A stretch of DNA of 4,565 bases from a virus (lineage: Duplodnaviria; Heunggongvirae; Uroviricota; Caudoviricetes). Both the position numbers and the translations under genes were made by a program. Shown here piece by piece: positions 580 to 795 of this stretch (its first letter is position 1; every line of letters starts with the position of its first letter). The DNA lies in IMG/VR virus record IMGVR_UViG_2660238548_000013. One strand, given 5' to 3'. The notes below the pieces were generated by a model. That model was not told the DNA's origin, did no database searches, and saw nothing but the letters and a program-made list of their open reading frames with translations.

Positions 580-795
580 TTACTCTCCCCGCGCCGCCTT
601 ACGACGGTCCTCTCTGATTTTGAAATACAGGTTAGTCAGATATGTCAGCAGCCCAAACAGCAGACTCCCCAGCACGCCTATTGCCGCCCACTGAGACGGA
701 GAGACTTTGTCCAGCAGCTGCAGGAACCAGTAGCCCGTTCCCACCGCTGACGTGGTGTATGACACACCTGTTGTGATTTTTTCCATCTGGTACAT
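580..795 (-). CDS. S: Class II holin (pinholin), phage 21 S21-like, 71 aa with dual start (Met1/Met4)
   Basis: Translation [71 protein letters not shown]: 71 aa, Met1 and Met4 (antiholin/holin 71/68 pattern), weakly hydrophobic Gly/Ala/Ser-rich TMD1, strongly hydrophobic TMD2, charged C-terminal tail; closely matches the S21/EssD pinholin as I recall it. Confidence 0.9.

Follow-up and report, generated by a model that had tools for sequence, protein, structure and literature searches.

An intact phage 21-type holin gene beside an IS-truncated ydfR in a Stx-phage-like prophage fragment of Escherichia coli

Introduction

A 4,565-nt stretch of viral DNA (Caudoviricetes; IMG/VR record IMGVR_UViG_2660238548_000013), which we call the window, carries a short open reading frame (ORF) for a holin with two possible start codons and ends before any endolysin comes into view. 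Where, then, is the partner of this holin? A first-pass annotation took the ORF for a dual-start pinholin and held that the lysis cassette is interrupted by at least one non-canonical gene, namely a 171-aa ORF and possibly a further gene at the edge of the window. We find instead that the gene next to the holin is ydfR, a known resident of such cassettes, and that it is cut by the end of an insertion sequence (IS). The explanation that we favor as a whole, with a probability of about 0.9, is that the window represents the part nearest the promoter of a late operon, in a lambdoid E. coli prophage that resembles Shiga toxin (Stx) phages but is stx-negative. In this view the prophage is decaying, and the holin gene is intact while its partners are absent or uncoupled from it.

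Results

Homology identifies an intact holin gene of the phage 21 family

The features on which the argument rests are the following.

796-810, minus strand: translation initiation region of S (from comparison of the -80 to +45 regions of the window, essD and essQ)
580-795, minus strand: S gene, intact, 71 aa, P21 holin S family (class II holin, pinholin type; ORF list, Pfam PF04971)
128-575, minus strand: ydfR' (YdfR/DUF1327), the 5' 149 codons and the first base of codon 150 (Pfam PF07041)
60-575, minus strand: the whole 171-aa chimeric ORF
60-127, minus strand: read-through tail of that ORF, running from the second base of codon 150 through codon 171 to the stop and translated from IS terminal sequence
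1-127, plus strand: right end of an IS3-family element (IS629/IS1203 type), 127/127 identical to an annotated element

The holin ORF (580-795, minus strand) encodes 71 aa beginning MYQMEK, with ATG at codons 1 and 4. Its product matches the Pfam model PF04971 ‘Bacteriophage P21 holin S’ almost throughout (profile positions 1-63 of 64; E 3.6e-33, 113.8 bits against a cut-off of 26) as well as two PHROG holin families (E 2.7e-40 and 3.6e-34), and tblastn finds it in 436 phage records, mostly of Stx phages, at up to 98.6% identity. NCBIfam returned no match for the holin, YdfR or the esterase described below, and a literature text search for the literal N-terminal peptides of the window holin and of S21/EssD found none.

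The phage 21 S protein was not itself aligned; its stand-ins are the P21-S-named Pfam model and the two K-12 homologs, EssD of the DLP12 prophage and EssQ of the Qin prophage. Both align with the window holin without a gap, EssD at 58 of 71 identical positions (82%) and EssQ at 57 of 71 (80%). Like the window holin, both are 71 aa long, have ATG at codons 1 and 4, and combine a weak first transmembrane domain (TMD1) rich in Gly, Ala, Ser and Thr with a strong second one (TMD2). The hydropathy profile of the window holin matches theirs, with a weak hydrophobic segment at about residues 8-28 and a strong one at about residues 36-58 followed by a charged (basic) C-terminal tail. The Kyte-Doolittle maxima for a 15-residue window, 0.72 (residues 14-28) and 2.09 (residues 37-51), are nearly those of EssD. 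Eleven of the 21 residues of the first segment (8-28) are Gly, Ala, Ser or Thr and its hydropathy is low, a composition that would fit a SAR (signal-arrest-release)-like TMD1. Within the second segment, G40, G43, S44, G48, T51, T54 and N55 are the same residues in the window holin, EssD and EssQ.

These matches lie far beyond chance and confirm, at the level of homology, that the 71-aa ORF is a real and intact S gene of the phage 21 holin family. The first-pass assignment of the ORF to a phage 21-type holin with two transmembrane segments thus holds, including in the alignment to EssD that it had proposed as a check.

The 171-aa ORF runs from ydfR into an insertion sequence

The ATG of ydfR' lies 4 nt after the stop codon of S. 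Residues 1-100 of the 171-aa ORF match DUF1327 (Pfam PF07041, E 2.1e-44), the gene fragment matches PHROG 2091/1085/406, and a 176-aa ‘YdfR family protein’ (P0004) is 99% identical to the window YdfR over residues 1-149. No SAR-like N-terminus is present on the 171-aa ORF; the first-pass annotation was right on this point, the N-terminal part being YdfR/DUF1327. Relative to the family, the window retains the conserved core (residues 1-112) and part of a helical extension. We identified the closest complete genomes by megablast against 5,426 complete E. coli genomes, and in these the same gene is labeled by the NCBI Prokaryotic Genome Annotation Pipeline (PGAP) as a pseudogene, ‘YdfR family protein, missing C-terminus’.

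The sequence downstream of the YdfR part belongs to an IS. Window positions 1-127 are identical at all 127 positions to 11698-11824 of our extract from O103:H2 strain 12009 (L001), the right end of a 1310-bp element annotated ‘IS3 family transposase’, and are 96% identical to copies that PGAP names IS1203. Positions 2-85 (plus strand, frame 2) encode the last 27 codons of the transposase, LGRLGHIPPAEAEKAYYASIRNDDLAA, and its stop; positions 86-127 are the IS terminal region, ending in the inverted repeat TGAACCGCCCCGG as read on the minus strand. Both the terminal inverted repeat and the 3' end of the transposase gene are thus identical to those of a known element of the IS629/IS1203 group (IS3 family). 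The junction reads ...GCAGCAG followed directly by TGAACCGCCCCGG..., whereas the undisrupted ydfR sequence beyond window position 128 continues ...GATGAAATGAAAGAA.

The IS therefore cuts ydfR after codon 149, 27 codons short of the natural end of the 176-aa allele. The 171-aa ORF takes residues 1-149 from YdfR and residues 151-171 from read-through into the IS terminal repeat, with residue 150 straddling the junction. The ORF has the PF07041 match and the place directly downstream of a P21-type holin that are expected of a YdfR family member; it lacks a complete frame with the native C-terminus. The exact 171-aa product does not occur in the gene catalog, and residues 150-171 are absent from 20 aligned YdfR family members picked from the 279 found. 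On this composition the 171-aa ORF is not a natural protein, and its length is a read-through artifact. We also considered a long 329-aa allele, as in phage Stx2_95, as the source of the native part and set it aside, the closest intact allele being that of 176 aa (P0004 and L008, described below).

The ‘next gene’ of the first-pass annotation, starting with MTQPSQ at 19..1, dissolves in the same way. Because its ATG at position 19 is antisense to the transposase, within the 127/127 identity to the IS, MTQPSQ is not the start of a gene, and the possible second gene between holin and endolysin is the transposase 3' end read in antisense.

On the plus strand, window positions 135-162 hold a terminator-like hairpin followed by a T-run (AAGCACCTCATTTTTTGTTGGGGTGCTT TTTTT), opposite the ydfR coding sequence and 8 nt from the IS end. 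It is probably coincidental, as the matching peptide KKSTPTKNEVLAA occurs also in intact long alleles.

Relatives place a lysozyme after ydfR

Neither the ORF list nor Pfam reveals an endolysin within the window, in agreement with the first-pass statement that the partner is out of view. The pairing of this holin with a SAR-type endolysin is seen in the lineage instead. A draft contig (L008, GCA_012778795.1) is 99.855% identical to the window over 4148 nt and carries no IS. It encodes a holin 100% identical to that of the window, then a 176-aa YdfR with 99% identity to residues 1-149 of the window ORF, then a 177-aa Phage_lysozyme protein that begins 321 nt after the ydfR stop, with the N-terminus MNAKIRYGLSAAVLALIGAGTSAP... 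In the endolysins of relatives, the lysozyme domain is preceded by a hydrophobic N-terminus rich in Gly, Ala and Ser, LSAAVLALIGAGASA, and in L008 and other relatives the 177-aa protein begins MNAKIRYGLSAAVLALIGAG(T/A)SAP..., which would make its N-terminus SAR endolysin-like.

The same order recurs more widely. In NCCP 13906 the holin is followed by a 114-aa YdfR, a 177-aa lysozyme, an antirepressor and Rz (Pfam Phage_lysozyme and Rz), and in phages Stx2_95 and PhiR5_1 a DUF1327 protein of 329 or 211 aa stands after the holin and before endolysin and Rz. As judged from these gene orders, a partner endolysin placed after ydfR is a normal feature of the lineage.

The claim that non-canonical genes break up the cassette is therefore only partly right. 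A DUF1327 gene does sit between S and R; it is the known ydfR in its usual place (Qin, Stx phages and 224 phage records by tblastn) and not a fresh interruption. The outcome that the first-pass annotation had set against its own view, a conserved lysis accessory gene next to a canonical endolysin starting at position 19, came true by half: the 171-aa ORF derives from a known, conserved resident of the cassette, and the ORF at position 19 is no endolysin.

Small antisense ORFs occur near the 3' end of ydfR in some relatives. In L008 (4159-4422, minus strand; 87 aa) and at the locus L005 (4584-4844, minus strand) such an ORF overlaps the 3' end of a longer ydfR allele, between ydfR and R, and in PhiR5_1 a comparably placed ORF is annotated ‘DUF1823 containing protein’.

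The closest complete genomes document decay of the locus

Positions 124-4565 of the window are 99.8-99.9% identical by megablast to O103:H2, O45:H2 and O121 strains and their relatives. In these closest complete genomes the locus is a degraded prophage adjoining ydfJ, a gene that flanks Qin in K-12. Their ydfR allele runs 14 nt further than that of the window and then continues into an in-frame 61-nt duplicate of ydfR nt 206-266. In O103:H2 strain 12009 the region with this duplicate (10439-10514 of the extract) abuts the left end of the 1310-bp IS3-family element (10515-11824), which lies in the opposite orientation and has no target-site duplication (flanks TTAGAGGC and AGGTTCGT). Fragments of espS and nleG7 follow the IS, and after them come dinI and ydfJ.

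No tblastn match to R, Rz or the antirepressor was found at this locus in the closest complete genomes, which by this comparison have lost endolysin and Rz. The arrangement in strain 12009 indicates an IS-mediated rearrangement other than that of the window. Because the closest complete genomes carry a same-family IS in the same gene, IS-driven decay at the ydfR locus is documented in these sequences. IS629-type insertions that break prophages of enterohemorrhagic E. coli (EHEC) are commonplace.

The dual start adds no positive charge

The first-pass annotation had read the two start codons as a 71/68 antiholin/holin pair. The window holin does have in-frame starts a few codons apart at its 5' end, ATG at codons 1 and 4, and this spacing is conserved. 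A GGGG run resembling a Shine-Dalgarno sequence stands 1 nt before the first ATG and 10 nt before the second, in a layout closely similar to that upstream of essD, and suggests that both starts may be used. The extension between them is Met-Tyr-Gln in the window as against Met-Lys-Ser in the phage 21/EssD/EssQ type, and thus adds no positive charge. The antiholin behavior of S21-71 and of lambda S107 has been ascribed to an extra positively charged N-terminal residue (PMC9636201, a review). Because Met-Tyr-Gln lacks the Lys or Arg given in the literature as the basis of S21-71 antiholin action, the antiholin label, and with it a 71/68 antiholin/holin function, is unproven for this allele. The change from Q3 to R3 would take a single base.

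To place this allele in its family we surveyed the N-terminal extensions of 120 cluster representatives of the P21 holin family, most of which keep the M-x-x-M pattern. Extensions with Lys or Arg occur in 50 of the 120 (MYRM 21, MKSM 15, MLRM 6, MMKM 3, MKM 3, MKFM 1, MHRM 1), whereas 39 have uncharged or acidic extensions (MYQM 30, MDQM 4, MNQM 3, MFQM 2). The uncharged or acidic group predominates in E. coli Stx-type prophages.

YdfR is a length-polymorphic family with a conserved core

Of the 279 YdfR proteins found, 120 are listed by name, and each of these names is from Escherichia or Shigella; on these 120 the family is confined to the two genera. Its members share a conserved 112-aa core and differ in the length of the C-terminus, with total lengths of 103, 114, 176, 183, 211, 246 and 329 aa. 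Some forms are chimeric: P0061 is fused to an ANT domain, P0034 and P0185 join holin and YdfR in one ORF, and P0003 has duplicated part of itself internally.

YdfR of K-12 is reported to bind RNase E, at the catalytic N-terminal half of the enzyme, via the first 72 residues of YdfR (PMC13232886, 2026). In the same study the protein co-purified with RNA, and its overexpression changed the transcriptome little (PMC13232886). We modeled residues 1-149 with AlphaFold2 from an alignment of 21 sequences. The model has a mean predicted local distance difference test score (pLDDT) of 57.4 and reaches moderate confidence only at residues 1-72, which form three strands and a helix. A Foldseek search with this model against the PDB gave no match at E <= 0.001. 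Weak matches (E ~0.5), some to dsRNA-binding domains, were not taken as evidence. A role of YdfR in lysis is unproven.

Layout of the late operon upstream of S

The meaningful genes of the window, as judged from the ORF list, Pfam and annotated relatives, all lie on the minus strand. Upstream of S they are, in the direction of transcription:

4523-4565, minus strand: 3' end of the antitermination gene Q
about 3923-4285, minus strand: TerB-family pseudogene with an in-frame internal stop, also annotated as a pseudogene in the closest genomes
3789-3926, minus strand: small DUF3927 ORF, its start overlapped by the TerB-family pseudogene
3586-3752, minus strand: STnc100 small RNA, full-length match between the Q region and the esterase gene (Rfam RF02076, 101.6 bits against a gathering score of 47)
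3558-3540, minus strand: strong terminator-like hairpin with a T-run, after STnc100
1508-3445, minus strand: NanS-p-type sialate O-acetylesterase homolog, 645 aa, with DUF1737, SASA and DUF6645 (Pfam), the first large gene of the late operon
1178-1360, minus strand: small DUF1378 gene with a hydrophobic N-terminus, upstream of S (Pfam PF07125, E 5.8e-40)
871-1140, minus strand: small DUF826 gene, upstream of S in the same late operon (Pfam PF05696, E 1.2e-34)

The esterase homolog is a ‘SASA family carbohydrate esterase’ in the annotation of the closest genomes, and its counterpart in Stx2_95 is annotated yjhS, 9-O-acetyl-N-acetylneuraminic acid deacetylase. In Stx2a phages the late operon downstream of stx runs nanS-p, DUF1378, DUF826 and then S (PMC10462455). 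The window contains no stx; the TerB pseudogene and DUF3927 occupy the place where Stx phages carry it. We asked whether tRNA genes or remnants of stx lie ahead of the esterase; a tRNA search of the window returned no such gene.

Alternative readings of the locus

Several points weigh against a decaying prophage in which an IS has separated S from its partners. The window ends 127 nt into the IS with nothing beyond in view. The exact ydfR::IS junction was not found in the 5,426 complete E. coli genomes, and a 35-nt string across it was absent from viral and metagenome contig collections, so that the junction rests on one sequence. An IS part of exactly 127 nt at the end resembles the contig end of a short-read assembler, which fits a real junction and says nothing of the far side. 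Furthermore, the pinholin behavior of S in this copy is a prediction from 82% identity to EssD and family membership. The leftward extension beyond position 1 that the first-pass annotation had called for found no footing, the 171-aa product being absent from the gene catalog and the window's own junction from the contig collections and complete genomes. No complete E. coli genome covers at least 80% of window positions 1-420 in one place, and three apparent matches of 100% coverage (H1-H3) were discarded, since they combine a match with another IS copy that lies nearby but apart from it. Probably the window is an entire draft contig lying between repeats, the IS at one end and the multi-copy Q gene at the other; 127 is a common maximum k-mer size in short-read assemblers. 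One could go further and regard the junction as an assembly artifact, the last 127 nt being misjoined at a repeat and the true locus reading S-ydfR(176 aa)-R as in L008. Such a misjoin would account for the k-mer-sized IS part and for the junction's absence from the other public sequences searched, and L008 does carry the undisrupted form at 99.86% identity. However, a de Bruijn contig that stops k bases into a repeat is what a real unique-to-repeat junction is expected to give, the break coincides exactly with the terminal base of the IS (TGAACCG...) as in a true insertion, and the same-family IS of the closest complete genomes sits in the same gene only 14 nt and a 61-nt duplicated fragment away. 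We consider a misjoin very unlikely.

An intact cassette with novel non-canonical genes, the 171-aa ORF and the MTQPSQ gene, between a dual-start pinholin and its SAR endolysin is highly improbable. It draws on the absence of an endolysin from the window and on a gene of non-lysis type, that for DUF1327, which truly lies between S and R in the lineage. But the family of this gene and its position are both known (it is named ydfR in K-12 Qin, and tblastn gave 224 phage records), its 171-aa form is a fusion with IS sequence, the 127/127 IS identity refutes a second gene in what is antisense to the transposase C-terminus, and the cassette is broken rather than intact. The window S may yield holin only, or two equivalent holins, and no antiholin, the MYQM dual start being a relic without regulatory role. 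The uncharged extension argues for this when set against the positive residue to which PMC9636201 ties antiholin behavior, and so do the 39 of 120 family representatives with uncharged or acidic extensions, against 50 with Lys or Arg. On the other hand, the MYQM subgroup conserves both the M-x-x-M spacing and the placement of GGGG with respect to the two ATGs, suggesting selection on both starts, and a longer N-terminus might slow the exit of TMD1 even when uncharged. We regard the loss of the antiholin as a possibility, on the doubtful side. It is quite unlikely, in our estimate, that in the Stx-phage/EHEC subgroup with its uncharged extension the timing of lysis is set not by a charge-based antiholin but with the involvement of the coupled YdfR as a regulator; if true, YdfR would be a regulator within the lysis cassette and not a passenger.

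Discussion

The holin, its family, its neighbors (nanS-p, DUF1378, DUF826 and ydfR) and the S-ydfR-R-Rz order are all annotated already in K-12 and in Stx phages. The value of the analysis is one of correction: an ORF running into an IS end and an antisense ATG in a transposase had been taken for genes. Two points are of interest for lysis, the charge-less dual-start extension of the Stx-phage subgroup and an unexplained, length-polymorphic YdfR gene within the lysis cassette.

By homology, the S product would build up in the inner membrane, spanning it with two segments. TMD1, which is weakly hydrophobic, would then leave the bilayer, and the TMD2s would oligomerize into small holes that collapse the membrane potential, which would in turn release a membrane-tethered SAR endolysin. 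In the lineage, S and ydfR are 4 nt apart; R comes next, and Rz/Rz1 lie beyond it, in some cases with an antirepressor gene in between. An IS629/IS1203-type element cuts the ydfR of the window after codon 149 with its right end and creates both the artificial 171-aa ORF and the spurious MTQPSQ start. Because ydfR is cut in this way, the endolysin is either lost or pushed away by 1.3 kb of IS or more.

Comparison with known systems

The IS of the window shares its right end with the 1310-bp IS629/IS1203 relative, which has a two-ORF programmed-frameshift transposase and TGAACCGCCCCGG termini; in the window 127 nt of it are seen, and its left end and any target-site duplication (3-4 bp) lie outside the view. 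The holins of Stx phages (933W, H-19B, Min27, TL-2011c and others) are 93-98.6% identical to the window holin, and Stx phage S proteins have already been classed as P21-family pinholins (PMC10462455). These phages have the same neighbors upstream of S (nanS-p, DUF1378, DUF826). The window differs from them in having no stx operon upstream, where the TerB pseudogene, DUF3927 and STnc100 are found instead, and in its IS-cut downstream cassette. In K-12, DLP12 has essD followed directly by rrrD, with no ydfR between them, whereas Qin has the order essQ-ydfR-rrrQ-rzpQ/rzoQ, the same as in the lineage of the window, with the DUF1327 gene tightly between holin and lysozyme. The Qin YdfR is 103 aa long. 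The window allele, truncated here by the IS, is of a longer type that has an additional helical segment and measures 176 aa in its intact state.
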